Of a stretch of 64,000 bases of DNA, positions 28,519-59,454 are shown in pieces. The stretch covers positions 672-64,671 of the forward strand of contig CAZOMB010000004.1 of the NCBI GenBank assembly GCA_964581105.1. The letters run 5' to 3'. Origin of the DNA: Candidatus Micrarchaeota archaeon (GTDB lineage Archaea > Micrarchaeota > Micrarchaeia > Anstonellales > Anstonellaceae). A program made the translations under genes and the position numbers. Under the pieces are notes generated by a model. It was given only the letters and a program-made list of their open reading frames with translations. It had not been told where the DNA came from and made no database searches. How positions within the stretch are numbered: the first letter of the stretch is position 1; each line of letters begins with the position of its first letter.

Positions 28519-28640
28519 GTGTCAGCAGCAACGTGCTTTCCCGCTCACAGAGCAGTACAGGCAGTGTCGTGAGAGGGCTTAACTTCCGAGTTCGGAATGG
28601 GTTCGGGTGTTTCCCCTCTCCTATGACCGCTGACAGGCAG
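28519..28640 (-). rRNA. 5S ribosomal RNA, about 122 nt, stand-alone
   Basis: The minus-strand sequence is CUGCCUGUCAGCGG...CCGAACUCGGAAGUUAAGCCCUC...GCUGCUGACA. It has the conserved loop C/helix III core CCGAAC...GGAAGUUAAGC. Helix I is formed by UGUCAGC/GCUGACA. An AAATAAAAA TATA-like box sits about 25 nt upstream at 28655-28672. Confidence 0.8.
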
Positions 28641-28695: not shown

Positions 28696-28908
28696 TTACT
28701 CCAACTCGGACTTTTCCATTCCAACGGTTTTGATTATATGGCGCACAAGGCCGCGCTTTAGCTCCTTATGCAAAGGAATAGTGACTGGCGGCAGCTCCCT
28801 ATGGACAAGATTTACATGGCTTCCTTTCCTGCTTCGCACAACAAAGCCCTTGTACTTGATAAGAATTTTTGCCAGCTTCTCTCCGGAAACAACTGGAAGC
28901 TTAGGCAC
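28696..28908 (-). CDS. hicA: HicA-family toxin (YcfA-like mRNA interferase)
   Basis: MPKLPVVSGEKLAKILIKYKGFVVRSRKGSHVNLVH matches the HicA/YcfA pattern (...KGSHxxxxH...). It overlaps the upstream hicB by 8 nt. Confidence 0.75.
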   Translation of the reverse strand: MPKLPVVSGEKLAKILIKYKGFVVRSRKGSHVNLVHRELPPVTIPLHKELKRGLVRHIIKTVGMEKSELE

Positions 28909-29134
28909 TTAAAGACACCGTTGCTACCTGCAACTTTCCAGAATTTGCTGGTGTTTTGCGGTAGGAGCCAAGCGACTCAAGGTGCAGAAGAAGAGCCTCT
29001 TTTATGTTCTTGAGGGCACCCTTTTTGGTTTGTGCCTGGGAAAAACAGCCGGGAAGGGAAGGCACTTCTACCCAATAGCCTCCTTCGTCAGCCTTGTGCA
29101 AAACCACTTTCACATTGATTTTCTTGCCTGGCAT
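28901..29134 (-). CDS. hicB: HicB-family antitoxin (UPF0150)
   Basis: VVLHKADEGGYWVEVPSLPGCFSQAQTKKGALKNIKEALLLHLE matches the HicB N-terminal domain (...GGYxxxxPxLPGCxxxGxTxEEALxNxxEAI). Confidence 0.75.
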   Translation of the reverse strand: MPGKKINVKVVLHKADEGGYWVEVPSLPGCFSQAQTKKGALKNIKEALLLHLESLGSYRKTPANSGKLQVATVSLSA

Positions 29135-29273
29135 GCATTAGCTTTTGCTGCCTGAGTTTTTATACTTAAGCACAGTAACGTGCCGGTGAACATTAAGGAT
29201 GTCCTGAAAAACCTATCTCGTTGCCCATACAAAACCTTAATAAGCACAGCCAGAGAATTGCATTTGTGAGACT

Positions 29274-30080
29274 ATGATTAACGTGAAACATTATTCCTAC
29301 GGTGCCGGAGCCCTTGCAGTGCTTGGGGCAATGGGCGCATTTGTTGGAGGCACAGGGATTATTACCCTGATTTCTGGGTTTCTTTGCCTTGTTGGGGCAA
29401 TTGGCGCAGTTGCAATTTACAAATATGGCTACTTTATTGTGCCATTGCTTACTCAAAAGGGGAACATAGTACAGATAATAGAGGGCGGCTATGAAATACC
29501 GCCAACAAATGATGTTGTGCTCAAGAATGTTGGGGGAATTTACTATGCCTCAAAGTATTTGGGGGTCAGGATATATGAGTCTGCATCTGAAAAGACTGCT
29601 GAGGAAAATATTGTTTACTCTGAATATTTTGAAAGGGCAATATCATCAGTAAAGTACGTGACAAAATTCGCATTCATGGTTTACATGAAAGATGTAAGCT
29701 CTCACAGGAACAGGATTGAAACAAAGCATGCAGAGGCGCAACTCCGGCTTGCAAGGGAAAGGGACAAGCCAGACCCAGATGTATTGAAACTTGACAGGTT
29801 TGAAAAAGAAGTTGCAATGTGGGAAAACCAGATAAACAAGCTGACACGGGGCATAAAGCCAATGGGAGTCCTCTCCTATGTAATGACAACTGCAGTAGGG
29901 GTGAGCAAAGAGGCTGCAATGGCAGGCGCTGCTGCACAGGCAAAAGAGCTCAAGGCAACAATTGCAAATGCCCTGAATGTGCAGGTTGATGTGCTTACTG
30001 GAGATGAGATGCTGCGCTGCTTTCAGTGGGAAACAATGATACCTCCAACACCTGCAGAGATGGAGCAGGCAGTGCTCTGA
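29274..30080 (+). CDS. Membrane protein with two N-terminal TM helices plus a soluble domain. It is the first gene of the ATPase cluster.
   Basis: GAGALAVLGAMGAFVGGTGIITLISGFLCLVGAIGAVAIY is hydrophobic. It is followed by about 200 aa of soluble sequence. No motif is recognised. Confidence 0.45.
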   Translation: MINVKHYSYGAGALAVLGAMGAFVGGTGIITLISGFLCLVGAIGAVAIYKYGYFIVPLLTQKGNIVQIIEGGYEIPPTNDVVLKNVGGIYYASKYLGVRIYESASEKTAEENIVYSEYFERAISSVKYVTKFAFMVYMKDVSSHRNRIETKHAEAQLRLARERDKPDPDVLKLDRFEKEVAMWENQINKLTRGIKPMGVLSYVMTTAVGVSKEAAMAGAAAQAKELKATIANALNVQVDVLTGDEMLRCFQWETMIPPTPAEMEQAVL

Positions 30081-30091
30081 AGAGTGATACA

Positions 30092-31699
30092 ATGGGGCGC
30101 CTAAGTCTTTCTGGAATTGACAATGTGGATTTGGCAAGGCGGAACATATTTGTCCGCCCTCCAGAGCCTCCAGAAGACGTGCTAATGGCAGACCCGACAA
30201 ATGCAATATATGTTGGCAGGACAAAAATTTTCCATGTTCCTTTTTACTGGACTTTTCAAAAAACTACAAACCCGCACATATGCGTTGTTGGGATAACTGG
30301 CTCAGGAAAATCCTATTTTGTGAAAACATTCCTTACCAGGGCATCATATGTATGGGGAACAAATGCTTTCATAATTGACTGGGCAGGCGAATACAAGGAA
30401 TGGGTAAAGCAGGTAGGGGGAAAAGTAATCTCATTGGGCAGGGGCTCGTCAATAAACCTTCTGGATACTGGGGGCATGAAGCCAAATGACAGGATAAAAC
30501 AAGTGATGAGGACCTTGGATATTTTGACAGACATTGGAAGGTATCCAGAACAAAGAAGGCTGACAGAAATAGCAATTGAAAAGTCATATGTAAAGGCAAA
30601 ATTCAAGCTTGACTCAAAAATGCATGTGGACGGGCTTGGAAGGCCCTTAAGGCCGCCAACCCTGAAAGACGTGCAAAAGCACCTTGAGGACATGAGCGAG
30701 GCAGGCGGCTATGAGTTTCCTGCAGAGCTTGAAAATGCTATTTACAGGCTAAAGCAGTTTACAAGGGAAGGGGAGGACTTTTTTGCCAAGCACTCTACAA
30801 TTGATTTGGAAAAGTTAACAAGAGGGGGATTGGTTGACCTTGACTTGTCAGGATTGCCAGATGAGACTTTCAGGGGCCTGGCAGCTCTATCAATGCTTCA
30901 ATTCATAAAGGAAAAGATGAGGGAAGAGGGCTGGTCATCAACAAAAGGCCTGAAGCTCATGGTTGTGCTTGACGAGGCATGGAAAATTGCAAAAGATGAC
31001 AACTCTGATGCTGTAATGATTGTAAGGGAAGGAAGAAAATACCAGTTTGGTCTTATAGTTGCATCACAAAACCCAACAGACATATCTGAGGCGATTTTCT
31101 CAAACGTTGGGACAACTTTCATATTCAGGGTCAAGTTTGAAAGGTTTTTGGACTATTTGCAGAGCACTCTGAATTTCTCAGATTATATGAGGGGCGAAAT
31201 TGCAAAGTTTGGAGTGGGGCAGGCTGCTGTTAACATGGCATTTCAGACAACCTCTGACTTTTCTGACACTTTCCTTGTTGACAGGATAGAAGGAGAAGAG
31301 CCAATGCAGGAGTTTTTCCTTGACATGGAAAATGTGCTTACACAAGAGGAGCTTGCAATGGAAGGGTCCCAGCACGCAGTTTCATTTGAAAAGGACGAGC
31401 TTAAGAAAAAGCTGCGCTCATATGGCATGAGTGAGGAGCATTCTGATGAAATAGTGAGGCTGTTTGCAAAAAAGGGAAGAAGGATGGGGATTTCGCCCTT
31501 TGTAGTCCTGCTTTCCCGCTATGGGATTGCAAGGAAAAACATTTCAGCATTCTTAAAGGAGCTTGGGCTTGAGGACAATACCACTATAACCGTGCTCTCA
31601 AAGGCAAAAGAGCTTGAGATACTGCTTGGCAATGATGACATTTCAGATTACATAATAAACCCTGCTGGAGGGAAAAAAACAAAAAGAGGAAGGAGATAG
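30092..31699 (+). CDS. FtsK-HerA superfamily ATPase (HerA/VirB4/DUF87-like) with a C-terminal about 90-aa extension
   Basis: The Walker A motif is VVGITGSGKS at about 30288. Walker B is KLMVVLDEAWK. LIVASQNPTDI is the typical HerA/VirB4 arginine-finger region. The likely start is MGRLSL at 30092. Confidence 0.7.
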   Translation: MGRLSLSGIDNVDLARRNIFVRPPEPPEDVLMADPTNAIYVGRTKIFHVPFYWTFQKTTNPHICVVGITGSGKSYFVKTFLTRASYVWGTNAFIIDWAGEYKEWVKQVGGKVISLGRGSSINLLDTGGMKPNDRIKQVMRTLDILTDIGRYPEQRRLTEIAIEKSYVKAKFKLDSKMHVDGLGRPLRPPTLKDVQKHLEDMSEAGGYEFPAELENAIYRLKQFTREGEDFFAKHSTIDLEKLTRGGLVDLDLSGLPDETFRGLAALSMLQFIKEKMREEGWSSTKGLKLMVVLDEAWKIAKDDNSDAVMIVREGRKYQFGLIVASQNPTDISEAIFSNVGTTFIFRVKFERFLDYLQSTLNFSDYMRGEIAKFGVGQAAVNMAFQTTSDFSDTFLVDRIEGEEPMQEFFLDMENVLTQEELAMEGSQHAVSFEKDELKKKLRSYGMSEEHSDEIVRLFAKKGRRMGISPFVVLLSRYGIARKNISAFLKELGLEDNTTITVLSKAKELEILLGNDDISDYIINPAGGKKTKRGRR

Positions 31700-31702
31700 A
31701 AA

Positions 31703-31999
31703 ATGGCAAAAACGCTTTTCTTTGCAAAAGAGGAACTGAGAAAAAGGCTGAGGATGTTTGGCCTTGATGAGGTGCATGTGGCAGACGTGACAGGAGTGTT
31801 TGACAGGAACAACAGGCACATTGACGTTGTTTCATTCGTTATAATGATGGAGCGCTATGGAGTGCAGCGCTCAGACATCTCATCATTCCTGCATGACGTT
31901 GGGATTGATGAGAGCACAATGATAAATATATTTTCCAAGGCAGACTTCACCCGCCTTGGGGTAGGAAACAGGGAAGTCACGCAAGTGGTGCTTGCGTAA
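31703..31999 (+). CDS. Small protein homologous to the C-terminal extension of the upstream ATPase
   Basis: FAKEELRKRLRMFGLDEVHV...FVIMMERYGVQRSDISSFLHDVGIDESTMINIFSKA aligns with the ATPase tail FEKDELKKKLRSYGMSEEHS...VVLLSRYGIARKNISAFLKELGLEDNTTITVLSKA. Confidence 0.5.
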   Translation: MAKTLFFAKEELRKRLRMFGLDEVHVADVTGVFDRNNRHIDVVSFVIMMERYGVQRSDISSFLHDVGIDESTMINIFSKADFTRLGVGNREVTQVVLA

Positions 32000-32005
32000 A
32001 GAGGT

Positions 32006-32392
32006 GTGAAAATGGCAAAGGTATGCATAATTTCAGGGGAAAGGGTGCAAAAAGGCTACCCAGTGGCTGATGACTTTGTTATAAGGTCAATAAGGTCAGT
32101 GAAAAAAAGGCTTGGCATTGCAAAAAACAATACTTTGGTGGTGTCGCATGAAAAGCTTGAAGAGTACAGGAAAAAGAGGGAAAAATACGAAAAAGACCTT
32201 GTCATGCACATAGTTCTAGCCGGCTTTGTTCTTGTGCTGTTTGTGCTTTTGCCAATCTTCACAACAGGATTTTCAATAACAGCGCTTTTGCTTGGGATTG
32301 TGCTTGCAGCAATGATTGTAGGGCTTTCAGTGTTTTCCCATTGCCCAAGGATTGAGGCAAAGGGAATAGGAAAGAAAAAGAGGAAGAGGTAG
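32006..32392 (+). CDS. Small 2-TM membrane protein
   Basis: The hydrophobic hairpin is HIVLAGFVLVLFVLLPIFTTGFSITALLLGIVLAAMIVGLSVF. The tail is basic. Confidence 0.4.
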   Translation: MKMAKVCIISGERVQKGYPVADDFVIRSIRSVKKRLGIAKNNTLVVSHEKLEEYRKKREKYEKDLVMHIVLAGFVLVLFVLLPIFTTGFSITALLLGIVLAAMIVGLSVFSHCPRIEAKGIGKKKRKR

Positions 32393-32395
32393 CAA

Positions 32396-33169
32396 ATGGT
32401 CAGAATAAAACTGCCGCAAAAAGGGGGCAAGTCAAGGACTTCAAAGGCTCCGCCAAGGCCTACAAAGCCAACTGTGAGCGGCTTTAGGGTGCATGGCAAA
32501 AGGCAGGCCAACCCAAAAGAGCTTTCCAAAAAGCTTTCTGAGCTGTCATTCCTTGAGATGAGCGTTGAGGGGGATTCCCTTGCAGTGCTGAATGTGGAGT
32601 CAAGGGACATACAAAAAAATCCGTATCTGTTCTCAATAGTTTACTTTAGGCCTGCAATGATAGAGGCAACCTATACATGCCTTGCAAACATGAGCCCGAA
32701 AAAAAGAAGGATAGATGTTTTGCGGCATTTTCTCAACCTGATGACAATAACAGAAGATTGCTATGAAATTGAGATACGCGAAGTTTACCAGCTTCTTGAG
32801 GCTGCGGTTGCGCACATGACCCAGTATGTTTCTGTTGACTATGACCGGCTTTTTTCTCTTTATGACAATTTGCAGACAGAATTTTCCAGCCTGAAGAAAA
32901 AGGCTGCCGAGGCAACTGAGGCAAACGCATCGCTTTCAAAAGAAAATTATGAGCTCAAGAGCAAAAATGACGAGCTCACCCTTAAGCTTGAGTCCCTTGA
33001 AACCTTTTCAGACTCTGTGCTTTCTGTCAAAATACAGGAATGGCTCTCAGAACACAAGGGCGAGATAAATATTGCTGACTTTTCCAAGGTATACAATGTC
33101 CCTGAGACACGGGTCGAGCAGATTCTCAACAAGCTTGTGACTGAAGGCTATATTGAGACAAAAGGCTAG
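32396..33169 (+). CDS. Coiled-coil protein with a C-terminal winged-helix-like domain
   Basis: A heptad-like segment is LQTEFSSLKKKAAEATEANASLSKENYELKSKNDELTLKLESLE. The C-terminal sequence is FSKVYNVPETRVEQILNKLVTEGYIE. Confidence 0.45.
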   Translation: MVRIKLPQKGGKSRTSKAPPRPTKPTVSGFRVHGKRQANPKELSKKLSELSFLEMSVEGDSLAVLNVESRDIQKNPYLFSIVYFRPAMIEATYTCLANMSPKKRRIDVLRHFLNLMTITEDCYEIEIREVYQLLEAAVAHMTQYVSVDYDRLFSLYDNLQTEFSSLKKKAAEATEANASLSKENYELKSKNDELTLKLESLETFSDSVLSVKIQEWLSEHKGEINIADFSKVYNVPETRVEQILNKLVTEGYIETKG

Positions 33170-35786
33170 GCACAAACCAAAGGTTATTCGCATGGTTGAA
33201 AAGGACAAGCTTCTCAAGCTGAAAATTTCAAAAAACGCATATGTTTTCGACGTGAGGAGAAAGTACAATGCAAAAAGGAGCTTTAGGGTGAAAAAAAAGC
33301 CTGACACGCCTTTTGATGACTTGAAGGGAACTGCCCTTTCTCTTTTAAAGAAAAAAAAGCAGGAGAAAAAGCAAGAAAAAAAGCCAAAAGCCCCACTCGG
33401 GGCAAAGCTGCCTGAAAGCCCAAAATCTGCAATTGCAAAGACAGCTGCGATTGTTGTCCTTATTTTCATTTTACTTGGCGCTGCATTTGTATGGCTAATG
33501 CTCCAAGGGCCTGGTGCAGGGCCAGAGGAAATTGAAGCGCCTGATGTTTTCTCAGGGTCATTCGGCTATTCAATAGAGCAGTCAATGGTCCTGTCTTCCA
33601 GCCAAGAGGATGAACTTTCTAGGTCTGCCTATTTTTTGGTTGACTTTGATGCAAGGAACCTTGGCGGGCTTAACTTTTCTGCATCTGTTTTCTCGCAAAA
33701 GCCCTCAGTCCAGGTATTTTTGCTTGACTATGCAAGGGACAGCGCTGACTCCTACCCTGTTTTCAGGAGGAATTTGATTGACAAGCTTAAAGAGAATGGG
33801 ATTTCTGTGAATGAGATAGACATTGAGGCGCTTTCTTCTTTGCCAGGAGGCGCCCTGGTTGTTGTGCCAACAGGCTATTTGCCAAAAGAGCTTTTGGGAA
33901 TTGGCAGCCAGCTTGACTTCAAAAAGCTTCTTTCGAGAGGGGTAACAATAGTTTACATTGGAAGGGAATTTGACTCGCTTGCCCTTGACCAGGCAGGCTC
34001 AGCAATCCCTGTTTCTTATAATGAGCTTTTGTTTGCAAAATCAAAGCCAGAGTCAGAGGATGGGTTTGGGCTGTATGACGCCCAGTATGTTGTTGGCCAG
34101 ATTGCAGGAAGAAATGACATTGACCTGGCTTTTTTTGGCAAAATATATGGCTCTGTTTCAGTCATAGGAAACAAAAACGGCTCTATTTTGTTCCTTCCCC
34201 AGTCGCTTGACGGAGGCTGGAGAACAGACGGCAAGGCAGCTGCACAAGATGTTGTAAGGCTTATAACAGAGGAAAGATGGCTTTCGCTTATTGCCTATGC
34301 CTCAAAGGAGATTGACCTTGAGGAAGAGCAATCAGGCATGGTGTCACTTTACTCAACCAGTTTTCCCAGTGACTCTGCGTATGTGAAATTCACTGCAAAA
34401 GCGCTTGACCTTGAGGGTAATGAAAGAAGCTCAACAGAAGTTCTCAAGCTAAAGAAAGTCCAGAAAGGGGAAATGACCCAGCCTGAGCCTGAGGCAGTCC
34501 CATATTACCTTTCAGGAGAGAGGACCAGGTTTAACATAGAGCTTAGGGAAACAGACCCCACGCCTGTAAAGCTTTATATCAGCATGTACAAGGACGGAAC
34601 TGAGCTTCAGCGCTCTGACCTTGAGCTTGGCCTTACAAACCCAACAATAGACAAGTCAGTTGATTTTCAGGTAAATGCAGAGCCAGGAAATTACACTGCA
34701 TATGTGGTAAACTCAAAAGGCAAAATATATGCTGCAACAAGGCTGGATGTTATTGACCTGCAAATATACACAAACAGCAGCGACTGGCAGCAAGGGAAGT
34801 TCACTTTCCTTCTTTCTGCAGCAGGAAAGCCTGTTGTTCCGCGCAGCCTTTCAATCTCCCTGGATGGGAAAGGGAAAAGGCAATACACCCCCTCTTCATT
34901 CGCATACTCAGGAACAAGCACTGCCATAACTTATGAATATGCAGGGGAGATAAAGCCTGGCTTGCATGAATTCATTTTTACTGCAGGCGACTGGAGCAAA
35001 AAATATGAGCAGGATTATTTTGCTGCCAAAAACTTTTGGGAAAACCCTGTTGTTATTTTTCTTGCAATTGTCTCGTTGGCTGTTTTTGGAATAGGCCTTA
35101 GCCTAAGAAGGCCAGAAGTCCTGAGATATGGGCTTGATGTTCCGGACTTTCCCCCTCTTTCAACAATAAAAATACCTGTGAAAAAGGAAACTGTGCTCGA
35201 TATACTTGACACTGTTAATGCCTCTTACTCATGGAAATGGATGCCGCTTGGCACTGATGAGATAAAAAAAGGCTTTAGAAAGCTGACTTACAACGGCAAG
35301 CCCATCCTAATAGGGGACTTTAACCTTGACATGGTGCTTGTCAAGCTTCGGGATGCCGGGCTTGTTAAAGAGGAGCTTGGCTATTGGGGCAGGGCTGAAT
35401 GGGAAAAGCAAAGCAACCATTCAATGCATTACCTTGCAATGTACAGGATTTTGCGCAATGTATTTGTGAACAATGCTGTGAAATTCTCAAAGCTGGATGC
35501 AATGAATGACTGTGACATAAAGGCAATTGTAGGGAAAGAAAGGCTGTATCTCCACATAATGGAAGAGCCAAAGGAAAGGGTTGTGCACAGGGCGCTTGCA
35601 ACCTCTGGCAAGGGCAAGACACTCATAGTATTCAGGTCAAAAGATGAGGCATCCTCCTTCCGCTCTTCTCTTACCTCAACCTCAAGGCTTGCTGTCGGGC
35701 TTAAGATGGAGGTCAACAGCAGGAACATATTGCTGCTTCCTGTGAAAAGAGGGGTTTCCGGGTATTTGAGGGGCCTTTCAAGGTAG
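33153..35786 (+). CDS. Large bitopic membrane protein of 877 aa. It has a basic N-terminus, TM1, an extracytoplasmic domain of about 470 aa, TM2 and a C-terminal cytoplasmic domain of about 230 aa.
   Basis: The hydrophobic helices are AAIVVLIFILLGAAFVWLML and VVIFLAIVSLAVFGIGLSL. It overlaps the upstream gene, which suggests translational coupling. Confidence 0.5.
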   Translation: MRQKARHKPKVIRMVEKDKLLKLKISKNAYVFDVRRKYNAKRSFRVKKKPDTPFDDLKGTALSLLKKKKQEKKQEKKPKAPLGAKLPESPKSAIAKTAAIVVLIFILLGAAFVWLMLQGPGAGPEEIEAPDVFSGSFGYSIEQSMVLSSSQEDELSRSAYFLVDFDARNLGGLNFSASVFSQKPSVQVFLLDYARDSADSYPVFRRNLIDKLKENGISVNEIDIEALSSLPGGALVVVPTGYLPKELLGIGSQLDFKKLLSRGVTIVYIGREFDSLALDQAGSAIPVSYNELLFAKSKPESEDGFGLYDAQYVVGQIAGRNDIDLAFFGKIYGSVSVIGNKNGSILFLPQSLDGGWRTDGKAAAQDVVRLITEERWLSLIAYASKEIDLEEEQSGMVSLYSTSFPSDSAYVKFTAKALDLEGNERSSTEVLKLKKVQKGEMTQPEPEAVPYYLSGERTRFNIELRETDPTPVKLYISMYKDGTELQRSDLELGLTNPTIDKSVDFQVNAEPGNYTAYVVNSKGKIYAATRLDVIDLQIYTNSSDWQQGKFTFLLSAAGKPVVPRSLSISLDGKGKRQYTPSSFAYSGTSTAITYEYAGEIKPGLHEFIFTAGDWSKKYEQDYFAAKNFWENPVVIFLAIVSLAVFGIGLSLRRPEVLRYGLDVPDFPPLSTIKIPVKKETVLDILDTVNASYSWKWMPLGTDEIKKGFRKLTYNGKPILIGDFNLDMVLVKLRDAGLVKEELGYWGRAEWEKQSNHSMHYLAMYRILRNVFVNNAVKFSKLDAMNDCDIKAIVGKERLYLHIMEEPKERVVHRALATSGKGKTLIVFRSKDEASSFRSSLTSTSRLAVGLKMEVNSRNILLLPVKRGVSGYLRGLSR

Positions 35787-35825: not shown

Positions 35826-37010
35826 ATGCGAATAGCAATGCTTGGGTGGGAGTTTCCCCCATTCATATCTGGGGGCCTTGGTGTCCACTGCTTTGAGCTT
35901 ACAAAGGCGCTTTGCGAGAAAGGCGCGCAAATAGATTTTTTCATGCCTGTGTCAGGCAAGAAAATAAGCTCGCCACACAAGGGGCTGCGGATAGTGGAGG
36001 TTGCAAAAACAGTGCTTAAGCCATATATGTTTTTCTCGAAAACCGGGAAAAGGGCAGGCTATGGCAAGAACCTTGTGAATGCAGTAAAGGAATACTGGTC
36101 ACATTGCATTTCCTCAGTCCTTGCCTATTCACAGGAAAACAGGTATGACATCATACATGCGCATGACTGGCTTGCCTCAAGGGCAGGAATAGAGCTTAAG
36201 CAAAAGCTCTCAATCCCCCTAGTACAGACTTTCCATTCAACTGAATTTGACAGAACCAGCTGGCCTTGGCAATACATTCTTGACATTGAAAGGTCTGCAA
36301 CTGAAAATGCTGACCTGATAATAGCAGTGAGCAAAAGGACCGGCGACCAGGTAGAAAGGCTTGGCGCGCAAAAGCAAAGAATAAGGGTTGTTTACAATGG
36401 GGTTGACCGGGAGAAATTTTCCTCTTCCCAGGTTGAAAAACTTGGAAGCTTTAGGAAAAAAAGGAAAATAGTCCTGTTTTTGGGAAGGTTAACAGAGCAA
36501 AAAGGGCCTGTGCAGTTCCTTCATGCAGCAAAAAGGGTGCTTGCAAAAGAGCCTGACACCCTGTTTGTAATTGCAGGCAAAGGCGAGCTTCTCCCCCTTC
36601 TGATAAATATGAGCCTTGGCATGGGAATTTCAAAAAATGTACGTTTCCTAGGGTATATACCTGATGAGGAGCAGAGGAAAATATACAAGGTTGCAGACGT
36701 TTATGTAATGCCCTCAACTTCAGAGCCTTTTGGCATAACTGCACTTGAGGCAATGAGCAGTGGAGTGCCAGTAATAATATCAAAAACCTCTGGAGTTGCT
36801 GAAATAGTAAAGTCTGCAATAAAGGTTGACTTTTGGGATATAAACTCAATGGCTGACAAAATACTTGCCCTGCTTAAGTACAGGCCCCTTGCAAAAACAA
36901 TGGCAGGCATGTCATTAGGCGAGGCTGGAAAATGGACATGGGAAAGGACAGCTGCTGAGACATTGAAGGTGTATGAGGAAGCGATAAATAGTAGGAAGAG
37001 CAATAATTAA
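35826..37010 (+). CDS. Glycosyltransferase family 4/5 (glycogen-synthase-like, GT-B)
   Basis: The N-terminal IAMLGWEFPPF..GGLG is glycogen/starch-synthase-like. SEPFGITALEAM is the EX7E motif. Confidence 0.7.
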   Translation: MRIAMLGWEFPPFISGGLGVHCFELTKALCEKGAQIDFFMPVSGKKISSPHKGLRIVEVAKTVLKPYMFFSKTGKRAGYGKNLVNAVKEYWSHCISSVLAYSQENRYDIIHAHDWLASRAGIELKQKLSIPLVQTFHSTEFDRTSWPWQYILDIERSATENADLIIAVSKRTGDQVERLGAQKQRIRVVYNGVDREKFSSSQVEKLGSFRKKRKIVLFLGRLTEQKGPVQFLHAAKRVLAKEPDTLFVIAGKGELLPLLINMSLGMGISKNVRFLGYIPDEEQRKIYKVADVYVMPSTSEPFGITALEAMSSGVPVIISKTSGVAEIVKSAIKVDFWDINSMADKILALLKYRPLAKTMAGMSLGEAGKWTWERTAAETLKVYEEAINSRKSNN

Positions 37011-53898: not shown

Positions 53899-55593
53899 AT
53901 GAAAGAATCAACAAAGCTCAAGTATGAGCTCAAAAAGCAGCTTGCCCATTTGCGCGGCATGAAAGGCAGTGGAACTGAGCTGATATCAGTTTACATACCT
54001 GCAAACCAGGCAGTGCATGAGACCTCAAGCAAGCTTAAGGGGGAATCAGGCCAGGCATCAAACATAAAGAGCAAAAGCACAAGGAAAAATGTAGGAGACG
54101 CGCTTGAGAAGATAATTCATCATTTGAAAAGCTATGGAAACAAGGCGCCAAGCACAGGGGTTGCAATATTTTGCGGCAATGTTTCTGACAGCCCTGCAAA
54201 AACAGACATTTCTCTTTTCACTGTGTTTCCCCCTGAGCCGTTGGGAGTCCAGCTTTACCGCTGTGACTCTCGCTTTTTCTTGGAGCCGCTTGAAAGGATG
54301 CTGGAATCAGACGAAACATACGGGCTTGTAGTGCTTGACGGAAGGGAATGCACAATTGCAGAGCTTCGGGGGACAGTTGTCAGGACATTGCACAGGCTAA
54401 ACTCCACTGCGCATGCAAAAATCCGGAAGGGAGGACAATGCCTTGCGCCTGATACTCTTGTTCAGACTTCAGATGGTGAGCTGGTACCTGTTTCTGAGGT
54501 TGTCCCGGGAATTAAAATAAAAGGAGCAGATTTGTCAAAGCTTAAGATATGCGATTGGGAGTGTTCCGACAAATTCAAAACAAAGTCAAAAAAAGCATAT
54601 AGGATAGCTGTTCAGAACTCAAAGATGGAAATTGTCGCAACTGCATGGCATCGGTTCTTTACAGTCGGAAAAAAAGGCATTGAAGAAATCTATGCAAAAA
54701 ACTTGAAGATAGGAAGTGTTCTACTTATTGCCAGAAAAGCGTTCAAGAATGACCCTGACACAAAGCATGGTGAGCCATCTGAAAAAATGCTCAAAAAATG
54801 GCTGTCTGAAGACATTGGAGTGGCAAGAGTGGCAAAACTAATACCAATAGAAGGAGAAAAAGAATATATTGACCTTACTGTGCCAAATGCATTCAACTTT
54901 GTGGCAAATGGCTTTATTGTGCACAACAGCGCCCGCAGATATGAGAGACTGATTGAAGAGTCAATTGAAAAGTATTACAAAAGGGTGGGAGTGTCAATGG
55001 ACAGGTATTTTGTTAACAAGGTAAAAGGAGTGATAGTTGGAGGCCCTGGCCCCACAAAGGAGAATTTTGTGAAAATGTCGCCATTTAATTACCAGATAAA
55101 AGTGCTTGGAGTGGTTGACACTGGCTATACTGATGACTATGGGGTAAGGGAGGTAATGGCAAAAAGCAAGGACATTATAGCAGAGCAGGCTGCAATAAAG
55201 GAAAAAGCGCTTGTTGAAAGGTTCATAAAAGAAGTTGTGTCAAACGGGCTTGCCACTTATGGGGAAAAAGAAGTAAGGCAAGCCTTAAAGGTAAAAAAGG
55301 CATCAAAGCTGCTTGTATCAGAAGGCTTGGAATACAAGAGGGCAAAGCTTGTTGATACTACTACAAAAGAAGTTCATTATGCAACCACAAAAAGCCCTTC
55401 TGAGCTTGAGGAAAAAATAAAGAAAATTGGCGGCACAGTAAAAGTTGAGGAGCAAATACCGCTTATTGATGACTTGATTGCCCTTGCTGAGGAAAAGAAC
55501 ATTGAAGTAATTGTAATTTCCCCTGACACTGCAGAAGGAGCGCAATTTTTAGGCTCATTTTACGGCATAGGCGCATTTTTGAGGTACCGCTAG
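53899..55593 (+). CDS. prf1: Peptide chain release factor aRF1 precursor interrupted by a mini-intein
   Basis: The N-terminal GSGTELISVYIP and the GGQ motif are present. The C-terminus ...FLGSFYGIGAFLRYR is typical aRF1. The extein lengths sum to about 401 aa. Confidence 0.85.
   Translation: MKESTKLKYELKKQLAHLRGMKGSGTELISVYIPANQAVHETSSKLKGESGQASNIKSKSTRKNVGDALEKIIHHLKSYGNKAPSTGVAIFCGNVSDSPAKTDISLFTVFPPEPLGVQLYRCDSRFFLEPLERMLESDETYGLVVLDGRECTIAELRGTVVRTLHRLNSTAHAKIRKGGQCLAPDTLVQTSDGELVPVSEVVPGIKIKGADLSKLKICDWECSDKFKTKSKKAYRIAVQNSKMEIVATAWHRFFTVGKKGIEEIYAKNLKIGSVLLIARKAFKNDPDTKHGEPSEKMLKKWLSEDIGVARVAKLIPIEGEKEYIDLTVPNAFNFVANGFIVHNSARRYERLIEESIEKYYKRVGVSMDRYFVNKVKGVIVGGPGPTKENFVKMSPFNYQIKVLGVVDTGYTDDYGVREVMAKSKDIIAEQAAIKEKALVERFIKEVVSNGLATYGEKEVRQALKVKKASKLLVSEGLEYKRAKLVDTTTKEVHYATTKSPSELEEKIKKIGGTVKVEEQIPLIDDLIALAEEKNIEVIVISPDTAEGAQFLGSFYGIGAFLRYR
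54439..54927 (+). mobile_element. Mini-intein (163 aa) inserted directly after the GGQ motif of aRF1
   Basis: In KIRKGGQ|CLAPDTLV... the intein starts with Cys (block A). VATAWHRFF is block B TxxH. It ends ...NFVANGFIVHN|SARRYERL, with HN plus a +1 Ser (block G). There is no homing-endonuclease domain. Confidence 0.75.
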
Positions 55594-57516: not shown

Positions 57517-58206
57517 TCAGTAGGGCATCTGAGGCATTCCTCCCATTGCCCCTAAGCCCATTCCTGCAAGCATTACTGCCAATGCAGCTGCAAGCATTGC
57601 TGCAAGAACTATTGCAACCACTATTGGAAGCAGTATTACTATTGCAGCTTTTATTGACGAGAGCTTGTGCACGCCTTTAATCAGCCTATAGTATGAGTAA
57701 AGTGCATACAGGGCGACAAGCAGTGCAATTAAGCTAAATGCCCAGCCAATGAATGGTATTGCTGCAAGCACTGTCAGAGGCGCATCAATCAGCGTATATC
57801 CCCCGAAAACCAAACTAATTCCAAGCGTCTGTTCCATAAAGCCTCCTTTTGCGCCAAGCACTTTTGCAATCACAAACAAAATTGCTGAGCCTATGAAAGC
57901 AGCGATTACCAGGAATATTGGGGTTACTATTACTCCGGGAAGCATGAACATTGCTGTTGTCATCCCTCCGCTGATAATAGTAGCAATGAAAGAAGCAGCC
58001 CAAATCACCACGCCTGCAATGGCAAGGTGCACTATTATTTTTCCAGCATTAGAATCCTTCTTGTTTGCGTCAAACTCCTTCATAGGATTAAAGTATGCAG
58101 AAGCCCAAGTCATAAACCTGGATTTGCACACAGGCATGTTTGACATAATTCCCATCACAAAGTCTTCTACAGGCGCAAGAGCACCTGATTTTGTCTTACC
58201 TGCCAA
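57517..58206 (-). CDS. Yip1-domain-like integral membrane protein
   Basis: It has 5 TM helices after a soluble N-terminus and a Gly/Ala/Met-rich C-terminus. A T-rich terminator follows on the minus strand. Confidence 0.45.
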   Translation of the reverse strand: MAGKTKSGALAPVEDFVMGIMSNMPVCKSRFMTWASAYFNPMKEFDANKKDSNAGKIIVHLAIAGVVIWAASFIATIISGGMTTAMFMLPGVIVTPIFLVIAAFIGSAILFVIAKVLGAKGGFMEQTLGISLVFGGYTLIDAPLTVLAAIPFIGWAFSLIALLVALYALYSYYRLIKGVHKLSSIKAAIVILLPIVVAIVLAAMLAAALAVMLAGMGLGAMGGMPQMPY

Positions 58207-58702: not shown

Positions 58703-59032
58703 TTGGGAAAAATTGCATTCATACTTTCCGCAGCCCTTTTGCTGAATGTCCTGGCAGCAGCTACAATGCTTACCTCTGTCCAGGAAGCAGTTTCAGAGAT
58801 GTGCATAAGCCTGAAAAGCCTTTTGCCAGTGGTTGCAATGACAATGCTTATCCTCGGCGGGGTAATTTATGCTGCTGGGCAGATGATGGGTGCTGAGACA
58901 AGGGCAAGGGGAAATGTGTGGGCAACTGCCTGCTTAACAGGGGCATTGATTGCAATCCTCATAGTAATAGTCGCACAGCCTGTTCTTCAGATGATTTACG
59001 GTGACCTTGGCACAGTTGCCTGCGAGCTTTAG
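58703..59032 (+). CDS. Small secreted 2-TM protein, VirB2/TrbC-pilin-like architecture (paralog 1)
   Basis: A signal-like N-terminus is followed by two hydrophobic helices separated by the conserved loop AAGQMMGAETRARGNVWATA. Confidence 0.5.
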   Translation: MGKIAFILSAALLLNVLAAATMLTSVQEAVSEMCISLKSLLPVVAMTMLILGGVIYAAGQMMGAETRARGNVWATACLTGALIAILIVIVAQPVLQMIYGDLGTVACEL

Positions 59033-59100: not shown

Positions 59101-59454
59101 TTGATGAGAAAATTAATGGTATTTGTGATGTTTGCAATGCTGGCAGCAACAGTTTTTGCCCAGACAGTTCCAACAAGTAGGATCTACGATGCAGCTGAGG
59201 CCTTGTACTGCGGACTTCGAGACGTCCTCCCAGTAATTGCAATGCTTATGATAATCGTTGCAGGAGTGATTTATGCTGCTGGGCAGATGATGGGTGCTGA
59301 GACAAGGGCAAGGGCAAATGTATGGGCAACTGCTGCTCTTACAGGAGCATTGATTGCAATACTGATTGTTGTAATTGCACCTTCTGTGTTCAGCATAATT
59401 TACGGAACAGGTTGGGAAGTGCCACCATGTTCTGGAATAACTTCAAGAAACTAG
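59101..59454 (+). CDS. Small secreted 2-TM protein, VirB2/TrbC-pilin-like architecture (paralog 2)
   Basis: It shares VIYAAGQMMGAETRARANVWATAALTGALIAILIV nearly identically with paralog 1. Confidence 0.5.
   Translation: MMRKLMVFVMFAMLAATVFAQTVPTSRIYDAAEALYCGLRDVLPVIAMLMIIVAGVIYAAGQMMGAETRARANVWATAALTGALIAILIVVIAPSVFSIIYGTGWEVPPCSGITSRN

Follow-up and report, generated by a model that had tools for sequence, protein, structure and literature searches.

A cluster of six genes in a 64,000-nucleotide stretch of a Candidatus Micrarchaeota genome (family Anstonellaceae; contig CAZOMB010000004.1, assembly GCA_964581105.1; hereafter the window) appears to encode the core of an envelope machine that is derived from a type IV secretion system (T4SS), resembles the archaeal Ced and Ted systems, is conserved across the sampled Micrarchaeota, and most likely moves DNA. 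We assign this reading as a whole a probability of roughly 0.62. That the cluster specifies a T4SS-derived envelope machine of the Ced/Ted class is likely, while the assignment of its activity to DNA exchange or import is drawn by analogy and is tentative. An earlier sequence-only reading of this DNA had proposed an undescribed translocation, DNA-transfer, or pilus-like system, reminiscent of Ced and Ted and built on a HerA/VirB4-type ATPase; the analysis described here supports that proposal, with the substrate still a matter of inference. Searches of the available full-text literature found no prior description of the cluster in Micrarchaeota or in DPANN archaea. The six genes, designated g1 to g6, are as follows (aa, amino acids).

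29274-30080, + strand: g1, an open reading frame of 268 aa
30092-31699, + strand: g2, the ATPase, 535 aa from the conserved ATG at 30092, which matches orthologues; the open reading frame itself opens at a GTG at 30026
31703-31999, + strand: g3, an open reading frame of 98 aa
32006-32392, + strand: g4, an open reading frame of 128 aa
32396-33169, + strand: g5, an open reading frame of 257 aa
33192-35786, + strand: g6, 864 aa from the ATG at 33192, a start implied by the database protein P0121 (864 aa); the open reading frame opens at a TTG at 33153

All six open reading frames exist, and they are co-directional and tightly packed, as had been proposed, with spacers of 11, 3, 6, 3, and 22 nt when the orthologue-supported starts of g2 and g6 are used. 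Searches of Pfam, NCBIfam, and PADLOC covered all six proteins, and the ATPase alone returned significant matches. The g2 protein comprises a P-loop ATPase domain (aa ~60-410) followed by an all-helical C-terminal domain (CTD) of ~100 aa. Its Pfam matches (AAA_10, DUF87, and the TraG P-loop) place it in the FtsK-HerA superfamily, and its Walker A (GITGSGKS), Walker B (VVLDEAWK), and VASQNPTDI motifs, which the sequence-only reading had picked out, are invariant among 13 orthologues. Within NCBIfam it scores highest against CedB (75.8 bits, 2.7e-21) and CedD (72.8 bits, 2.3e-20), followed by TraC (65 bits, 4e-18); the HerA models reach 39-42 bits (3e-11), below CedB, CedD, TraC, and the mycoplasma/clostridial VirB4 models. 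The equivalog cut-offs of these models are 700 bits for CedB, 600 bits for CedD, and 800-970 bits for HerA, and g2 misses those of CedB and CedD by an order of magnitude, making it a distant relative and not an orthologue. By these scores, and with a VirB4-like N-terminal domain (NTD) encoded upstream by g1, the ATPase does not group with the NurA-associated HerA helicases; moreover, no NurA, Mre11, or Rad50 gene was found in the window cluster or in 80 related loci.

The g1 protein begins with a hairpin of two transmembrane (TM) helices (aa 4-51), in the position of VirB3, and continues into a cytoplasmic α/β domain that resembles the NTD of VirB4/CedB in the AlphaFold2 model (mean per-residue confidence score, pLDDT, of 78). 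When this model was compared with the PDB using Foldseek, the top seven matches were all TrwK/VirB4 of plasmid R388, with probabilities of 0.87-1.00. The folds superpose at a sequence identity of 8-12%, and g1 belongs to no Pfam family and found no match in a profile search of PDB sequences; the fold evidence for g1 as a VirB4 NTD is moderate. A second line of evidence comes from unsplit relatives recovered by an exhaustive HMMER search with g2. These proteins are ~870-910 aa long, their ATPase part starts at about residue 280, and they align with positions 13-587 of the 590-position CedB model (1e-27 to 1e-41). Their N-terminal 250 residues, which contain a two-TM hairpin and a domain, are collinear with g1 (hhalign probability 84%, E 8e-6, 231 columns), and for one of them, P0344, a hidden Markov model comparison with g1 gives an E-value of 1.5e-4. 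Because g1 has the VirB4 NTD fold and aligns with the N-termini of unsplit relatives, the alignments and models show that g1 and g2 together correspond to a single ATPase of the VirB3/VirB4 (CedB) type, split in the linker between its N- and C-domains. One apparent g1-g2 fusion, at locus L001, proved to be a scaffold gap artefact. The relatives of g1 form 362 protein clusters, and every one with a named taxon is from Micrarchaeota or an uncultured archaeon.

The gene order of the cluster is conserved well beyond the window. The ATPase was searched for in one genome per GTDB species; 314 species genomes contained a confirmed relative, and for the best 80 loci gene content was assessed by tblastn with the window proteins. 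All 80 are labeled as Micrarchaeota or as archaea of the Micrarchaeota lineage (two titles read simply 'archaeon' and one 'ainarchaeum sp.'). Wherever the contig is long enough, the order g1-ATPase-g4-g5-g6 is the same, and the ATPase is present in all 80 loci, g1 in 75, g4 in 74, g5 in 75, and g6 in 67, so that the gene-order conservation asked about at the outset extends across Micrarchaeota (67-80 of 80 loci). This conservation is not due to chance. The flanks vary: HicA is found at 1 of the 80 loci, AMP phosphorylase at 11, and the glycoside hydrolase family 57 (GH57) gene at 8. Since the order is kept while the flanks vary, the cluster appears to be a vertically inherited, chromosomally fixed unit, next to which the window's HicAB toxin-antitoxin pair is an incidental neighbor. 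Identity to the window proteins drops from the cytoplasmic motor toward the surface, from 62-89% for the ATPase and 45-83% for g1 to 34-71% for g5, 26-62% for g4, and 26-55% for g6. The ATPase is also better conserved than the neighboring Cdc48 or AMP phosphorylase in the same genome pairs; at L004, for example, the ATPase is 86% identical, versus 75% for AMP phosphorylase and ~72% for Cdc48. Two ATPase relatives, P0297 and P0298, are interrupted by LAGLIDADG inteins, the insertion point being either Walker B (~aa 298) or a site shortly after Walker A (~aa 79-85). Inteins at such sites are typical of highly constrained proteins.

Genes for VirB2-like pilins are associated with this machinery. 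Two VirB2/TrbC-like paralogues had been noticed at 58.7-59.5 kb of the window and suspected of a link to the distant cluster; both are real, and synteny in other genomes bears out the suspicion.

58703-59032, + strand: VirB2/TrbC-like pilin paralogue A (pilin profile match, 1.6e-41)
59101-59454, + strand: VirB2/TrbC-like pilin paralogue B (Pfam TrbC, E 1.6e-5, 25.4 bits; T4SS_pilin, 17.2 bits)

Each has a signal peptide, two hydrophobic helices, and a GAETRAR loop. The Pfam cut-offs are 27.9 bits for TrbC and 26.6 bits for T4SS_pilin, and an orthologue at L026:7742-8083 passes the latter at 29.6 bits. In a search of the PDB with the pilin profile, TrwL/VirB2 ranked at the top at a non-significant E-value of 0.23. 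Among the 65 loci with enough upstream sequence, seven have an orthologous pilin gene on the same strand and no more than 600 bp upstream of g1, against a rough expectation of ~0.04 from random placement; these adjacencies span at least three sub-lineages, and in four further loci a pilin gene lies within 10 kb. VirB2-like pilin genes are thus physically linked to g1 in several lineages. A Yip1-domain polytopic protein is encoded divergently from the window's pilin-like genes (57517-58206, - strand). No homologue of it was found at the 80 related loci, which leaves a functional connection unsupported.

A candidate for the missing channel component emerged from some of the pilin-containing loci. 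At L076, a Micrarchaeota locus, the gene order is pilin, six polytopic paralogues, two copies of g1, ATPase, g3, g4, g5, and g6. The six tandem polytopic paralogues (L076:720-6915) share the motif LRxFPFTRxAGG..LIA...YP...LGxDxDxxGLxxLI, and the tandem duplication of g1 occupies L076:6916-8562. Another locus, L081, encodes P0350, whose 90%-identity cluster has one named member, from Candidatus Marsarchaeota. Its gene order is pilin (E 2.4e-13), a single polytopic family member, g1 homologue (5e-18), ATPase with CTD, g5 homologue (2.4e-5), and a 329-aa protein whose topology is like that of g6, with an Ig-like ectodomain between two TM segments and a domain on the cytoplasmic side. A further P-loop ATPase and two small TM proteins are also encoded at this locus. 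In a third lineage, L084 likewise has a polytopic family protein near the ATPase. At its N-terminus the polytopic family bears a weak resemblance to the pilin (E 0.003), and a corresponding relation is reported for VirB2/VirB6 and CedA1/CedA (PMC9905601). The family is a candidate analogue of VirB6/CedA.

The remaining proteins were examined for features that might indicate their roles. As had been recognized, g3 is a paralogue of the C-terminal extension of the ATPase (33% identity, E 8e-22 to g2 aa 432-522). A separate g3 copy occurs in 19 of 78 loci and the CTD is solely fused elsewhere; judged by its sequence, g3 is a lineage-specific duplicate of the ATPase CTD. PDB profile searches with CTD/g3 gave weak similarity to EF-hand pairs and to the helix-hairpin-helix repeats of Topo V. 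The earlier statement that no component other than the ATPase falls into a recognizable family holds for g4, g5, and g6, which match no described family in Pfam, NCBIfam, or PADLOC, and fails for g1, which is VirB4-NTD-like. The g4 protein, rightly called a small two-TM protein, has a cytoplasmic Zn-ribbon-like N-domain, two TM helices, and a basic C-terminal tail. A CxxC...CxxC pattern is found in most of 25 aligned g4 orthologues and is degenerate in the window copy, where the cysteines of the N-domain (32006-32200) are replaced (CIIS ... VSHE), as they are in a few other orthologues. Because of these replacements, metal binding does not appear to be essential to g4.

Besides a conserved N-domain, the cytoplasmic g5 protein has a coiled coil and ends in a winged helix. 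This agrees with the sequence-only reading; alongside coiled-coil matches, the winged-helix matches are weak (Rrf2, 7.8e-4; TrmB, 1.6e-3; the CdvB winged helix 2xvc, E 0.0027). A connection of g5 to ESCRT through the CdvB winged helix was considered and not accepted, given an E-value of 0.0027 amid coiled-coil noise. PADLOC returned a marginal match of g5 to CARF_TM (E 0.0018) and nothing for the other four partners of the ATPase. Homologues of g5 are also present in the L081 cluster and, in a fourth lineage, at L083:7196-10198 (GCA_040960315.1), where only g1, the ATPase, and g5 are kept, beside phenylalanyl-tRNA synthetase (g5 match, E 3.9e-37). The retention of just these three genes suggests that g1-ATPase-g5 is the minimal conserved core, and g5 is a predicted core partner of the motor.

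The largest protein, g6, had been described as bitopic with a large extracytoplasmic domain and a cytoplasmic C-domain. Both domains are borne out; the AlphaFold2 model (pLDDT 82) has two TM helices in place of one. It predicts a basic disordered N-terminal tail, a TM helix at 77-104, an ectodomain at ~105-618, a second TM helix at 619-638, and a cytoplasmic domain at 665-863, and from the basic flanking residues we infer that both termini are cytoplasmic (N-in/C-in). The ectodomain (~510 aa) is modeled as a β-sandwich followed by an α/β domain, which resembles the ThuA/GH42-middle/IFT52 (GATase1-like) fold, and then by three Ig-like β-sandwiches; the cytoplasmic part is modeled as a highly conserved linker followed by a winged helix and an α/β domain. 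Identity within g6 is 44-48% in the ectodomain, 81% in the cytoplasmic linker, and 60-65% in the cytoplasmic domains. The linker (aa 641-662; window 35112-35177), LRRPEVLRYGLDVPDFPPLSTIKIPV, is a 22-residue juxtamembrane segment, the most conserved of g6. The model leaves it disordered (pLDDT <50), and it probably serves as a peptide on which a partner docks.

These observations can be assembled into a working model. The g1 and g2 proteins would assemble at the cytoplasmic membrane as an ATPase of the VirB4/CedB-type hexameric class, and this ATP-driven motor would pull VirB2-like pilins from the membrane for polymerization into a conjugative-type pilus or a short conduit. Through its ~510-aa Ig-rich ectodomain, g6 would act as a scaffold or contact element across the pseudoperiplasm and S-layer, with its conserved cytoplasmic linker docked on the motor. 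The g5 winged helix, the winged-helix and α/β domains of g6, CTD/g3, and the polybasic tails may serve in motor docking and in handling a nucleic-acid substrate. The substrate would most likely be DNA, obtained from or exchanged with a host or neighboring cell as in Ced/Ted. For the channel, the candidates are a polytopic protein whose gene would lie in another part of the genome and an oligomer of two-TM subunits.

The closest parallels are the Ced and Ted systems, of which Ced belongs to Sulfolobales (CedA, CedA1, CedA2, CedB, and CedD/CedE). CedB and CedD, the best NCBIfam matches of g2, are published as having a TM segment, an NTD like that of VirB4, and an ATPase of the HerA/VirB4 kind (PMC11868833), an architecture that the motor described here shares. 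Both systems are chromosomal and lie off mobile elements, both include a VirB2-like pilin (CedA1 in Ced) and small two-TM proteins, and both lack a relaxase and outer-membrane parts (PMC9905601, PMC11868833). The differences are that the N-domain and ATPase are separate genes in the cluster, that its operon has no CedA-like channel of 6-7 TM helices, and that nothing in Ced corresponds to g4, g5, g6, or the helical CTD/g3; in addition, the host of the cluster is a mesophilic DPANN lineage, while that of Ced is a thermophilic crenarchaeon. The Ted system of Thermoproteales (TedA, TedB, and TedC) likewise pairs an ATPase like VirB4 with a pilin like VirB2, whose signal peptide is cleavable, as in the window pilins; it also has a polytopic VirB6-like protein, to which the candidate polytopic family near related clusters may correspond. 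However, TedB is an unsplit VirB4, Ted has no analogues of g5 or g6, and ParA/VirC1, HerA, and Rad50, which are frequent at Ted loci, were not seen at the Micrarchaeota cluster. Ted components show no sequence similarity to those of Ced, and systems of this kind therefore diverge far.

Among bacterial systems, there is a likeness to the VirB3-VirB4 complex of the inner membrane, exemplified by TrwM/TrwK of R388. VirB3-VirB4 fusions place VirB3 ahead of VirB4, and in g1 a two-TM hairpin precedes the soluble domain, which superposes on the TrwK/VirB4 N-domain, in the same way; the cluster differs in that its motor is split between NTD and CTD. Unlike bacterial T4SSs, it has no VirB8, VirB10, outer-membrane core proteins, VirD4, or VirB11. 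The T4SS of Patescibacteria (the Candidate Phyla Radiation, CPR) also belongs to ultra-small, host-dependent organisms, with VirB4, VirB2-like pilins (T4SS_pilin, PF18895), and no relaxases. VirB4 is present in most Patescibacteria genomes, and the absence of relaxases suggests co-option for host interaction (PMC12102498). The Patescibacteria system is, however, of bacterial origin in the mating-pair formation class FATA (MPF-FATA), with an unsplit VirB4 and bacterial accessory proteins, and the resemblance is one of independent (analogous) fixation, not orthology. In Nanohaloarchaeota, also DPANN archaea, SPEARE proteins combine a VirB4/TraG-like ATPase with a very large Ig-rich surface protein and are proposed to act on hosts (PMC10266531); there the ATPase domain is fused to the giant protein (~75 Ig domains), the architecture is different, and no sequence relationship to g6 was found. 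The 'novel secretion system' of Makarova 2015 (MoxR/arCOG01314), considered as a possible match, is a different system.

Several observations weigh against a Ced/Ted-like machine that moves DNA. The identity of the substrate and the direction of its movement rest entirely on inference, and neither Ced, Ted, nor the bacterial T4SSs contain anything equivalent to g4, g5, or g6, so that much of the mechanism is conjectural. The window pilin copies fall just under the Pfam cut-offs and lie 25 kb from the cluster. No polytopic, VirB6/CedA-like channel gene was found in the cluster, in the window, or at 79 of the 80 loci, and the polytopic family that might fill this position has no Pfam or PDB match, leaving its homology to VirB6 unproven. 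PDB sequence profiles of g2 match HerA and VirB4 about equally. Finally, the very high conservation of the ATPase is unusual for known T4SS ATPases and could mean that it has another essential role.

The same T4SS-derived, split-VirB4 machine might instead build an adhesive pilus or attachment structure, or move protein, RNA, nucleotides, or lipids at the symbiont-host interface. We regard this as unlikely, and it accounts for a number of facts: no relaxase, nuclease, or recognizable DNA-processing enzyme was found among the cluster proteins by Pfam and NCBIfam, and g6 has the kind of large, rapidly evolving ectodomain, rich in Ig-like folds, that is typical of contact or adhesion proteins. 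Related systems also offer precedents, in that the T4SS of Patescibacteria lacks relaxases and is reported to be essential for epibiotic growth (PMC12102498), RNA feeding has been proposed in connection with T4SS-like tubes in these bacteria (bioRxiv 2026.06.21.733656), and giant adhesins of Nanohaloarchaeota carry a fused VirB4/TraG-like ATPase domain (PMC10266531). In favor of DNA, the closest characterized relatives of the motor, CedB and CedD, import DNA, and two cytoplasmic winged-helix domains and several polybasic tails suit the handling of nucleic acid; neither point is decisive. A further possibility, less likely than not, is that the cluster is to DPANN archaea what the T4SS is to Patescibacteria: an essential, vertically inherited machine importing host nucleic acid (DNA or RNA) into nucleotide-auxotrophic Micrarchaeota, in which g6 would contact the host and span the envelope and the VirB2-like pilus would be the conduit. 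A cytoplasmic module for substrate handling, of a type not seen before, would be formed by g5, the g6 C-domain, and g3/CTD. If this were true, the cluster would be a key determinant of the symbiotic lifestyle and not a device for sex or repair.

Readings in which the cluster is not a T4SS-derived machine fare less well. A DNA pump anchored in the membrane and analogous to FtsK, with a housekeeping role in chromosome segregation or cell division and with g5 and g6 as septum-associated DNA-binding and scaffold proteins, would fit the phylum-wide distribution, the extreme sequence conservation, the inteins in the ATPase, the housekeeping surroundings with FtsZ 2.4 kb upstream, the membership of the motor in the FtsK-HerA superfamily, and the coiled coil and winged helix of g5, including its weak CdvB match (E 0.0027). 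Yet the FtsK_SpoIIIE Pfam model scores 21.1 bits on g2, under its cut-off of 24, and covers the P-loop alone; the N-domain is VirB4-like and not FtsK-like, several lineages have pilin and polytopic genes linked to the cluster, an extracellular domain of ~510 aa has no obvious role in segregation, and the FtsZ neighborhood is kept in close relatives only. This explanation is improbable. The naming of some database orthologues as 'DNA double-strand break repair helicase HerA', together with partial HerA matches in PDB and PADLOC, raises the alternative of a HerA-type repair helicase or a HerA-based antiphage defense module with chance membrane neighbors, which is very improbable on several counts: HerA equivalog scores of ~40 bits stand against cut-offs of 800-970, the PADLOC matches are limited to the P-loop core, none of the five partner proteins matches a defense family, no NurA, Mre11, Rad50, Sir2, or nuclease effector is present, and the cluster is universal and syntenic, not patchy. 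Just as little probability attaches to a remnant or active integrated conjugative element bearing MPF-FATA-type archaeal conjugation genes. Such an element would be expected from a VirB4-like ATPase, VirB2-like pilins, and a toxin-antitoxin pair next door, but the region has no integrase, relaxase, VirD4, or tRNA target and no compositional shift in its uniform GC content, the same locus occurs in 80 species with divergence that looks vertical, and HicAB is absent from the relatives' loci (HicA, 1 of 80).

The genomic setting of the cluster is that of a chromosomal housekeeping region, and includes the following features at its 5' end.

29230-29244, + strand: candidate archaeal promoter, a BRE-like (B recognition element) caaaacc followed by a TATA-like ttaataag, ~30 nt 5' of the g1 ATG
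28696-29134, - strand: HicA/HicB toxin-antitoxin pair, between AMP phosphorylase and the cluster

The promoter was read from the sequence and is a candidate for that of g1. The HicAB pair that had been reported upstream is real, and it lies on the opposite strand and has HicA at 1 of the 80 loci of relatives; its position is hence incidental. A stand-alone 5S ribosomal RNA gene (28520-28634, - strand; Rfam, 78 bits) also lies between AMP phosphorylase and the cluster. The surroundings include FtsZ, AMP phosphorylase, the 5S rRNA gene, a GT4/GT5 glycosyltransferase, a GH57 enzyme, Cdc48, an S-layer protein, and an intein-containing aRF1, with FtsZ placed 2.4 kb upstream of the cluster; no tRNA genes were found in the region, and GC content is uniform across it. 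The intein of the aRF1/eRF1 gene (53899-55593, + strand) was recognized by Pfam Intein_splicing at aa 193-343 and separates domains 1 and 2 of eRF1. In ~30 distant loci (L016-L078), a GT4-type glycosyltransferase gene, 23-30% identical to that at window 35826-37010, lies just 3' of g6, in most cases transcribed from the other strand. Close relatives instead share the glycosyltransferase and GH57 pair of the window, which follows g6 co-directionally. The glycosyltransferase gene may be a conserved neighbor, possibly for glycosylating surface components, or its position may be a coincidence. In the databases, g2 has a 100% identical entry and orthologues at 63-87% identity, those with a named taxon being from Candidatus Micrarchaeota, Micrarchaeia, Anstonellaceae, or an uncultured archaeon; they are named 'ATP-binding protein', 'HerA' (as above), 'CedB', or 'hypothetical'.

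A conserved T4SS-derived envelope machine in Micrarchaeota would matter in several respects. Hardly any molecular machinery has been assigned to the acquisition of host material by DPANN archaea, and the cluster is a concrete candidate, its five core genes, joined in the window by the g3 duplicate as a sixth, being present as a set in every Micrarchaeota locus examined. It would extend the reach of Ced/Ted-type systems from thermophilic Crenarchaeota to DPANN, with a related form at the Marsarchaeota-attributed locus L081, and it would introduce a new architecture, a natural split of VirB4 at the boundary between NTD and CTD, while g4, g5, and g6 would enlarge the parts list by three undescribed protein families, and the polytopic proteins by a candidate new family of channels. 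The parallel with the near-universal T4SS of Patescibacteria suggests, by analogy, a convergent reliance on conjugation-derived machines. Co-cultures of Micrarchaeota exist (Ca. Micrarchaeum harzensis and Ca. Mancarchaeum acidiphilum), making the prediction directly testable. In these organisms, the cluster may be a route for the exchange of DNA or other large molecules with hosts or neighbors.

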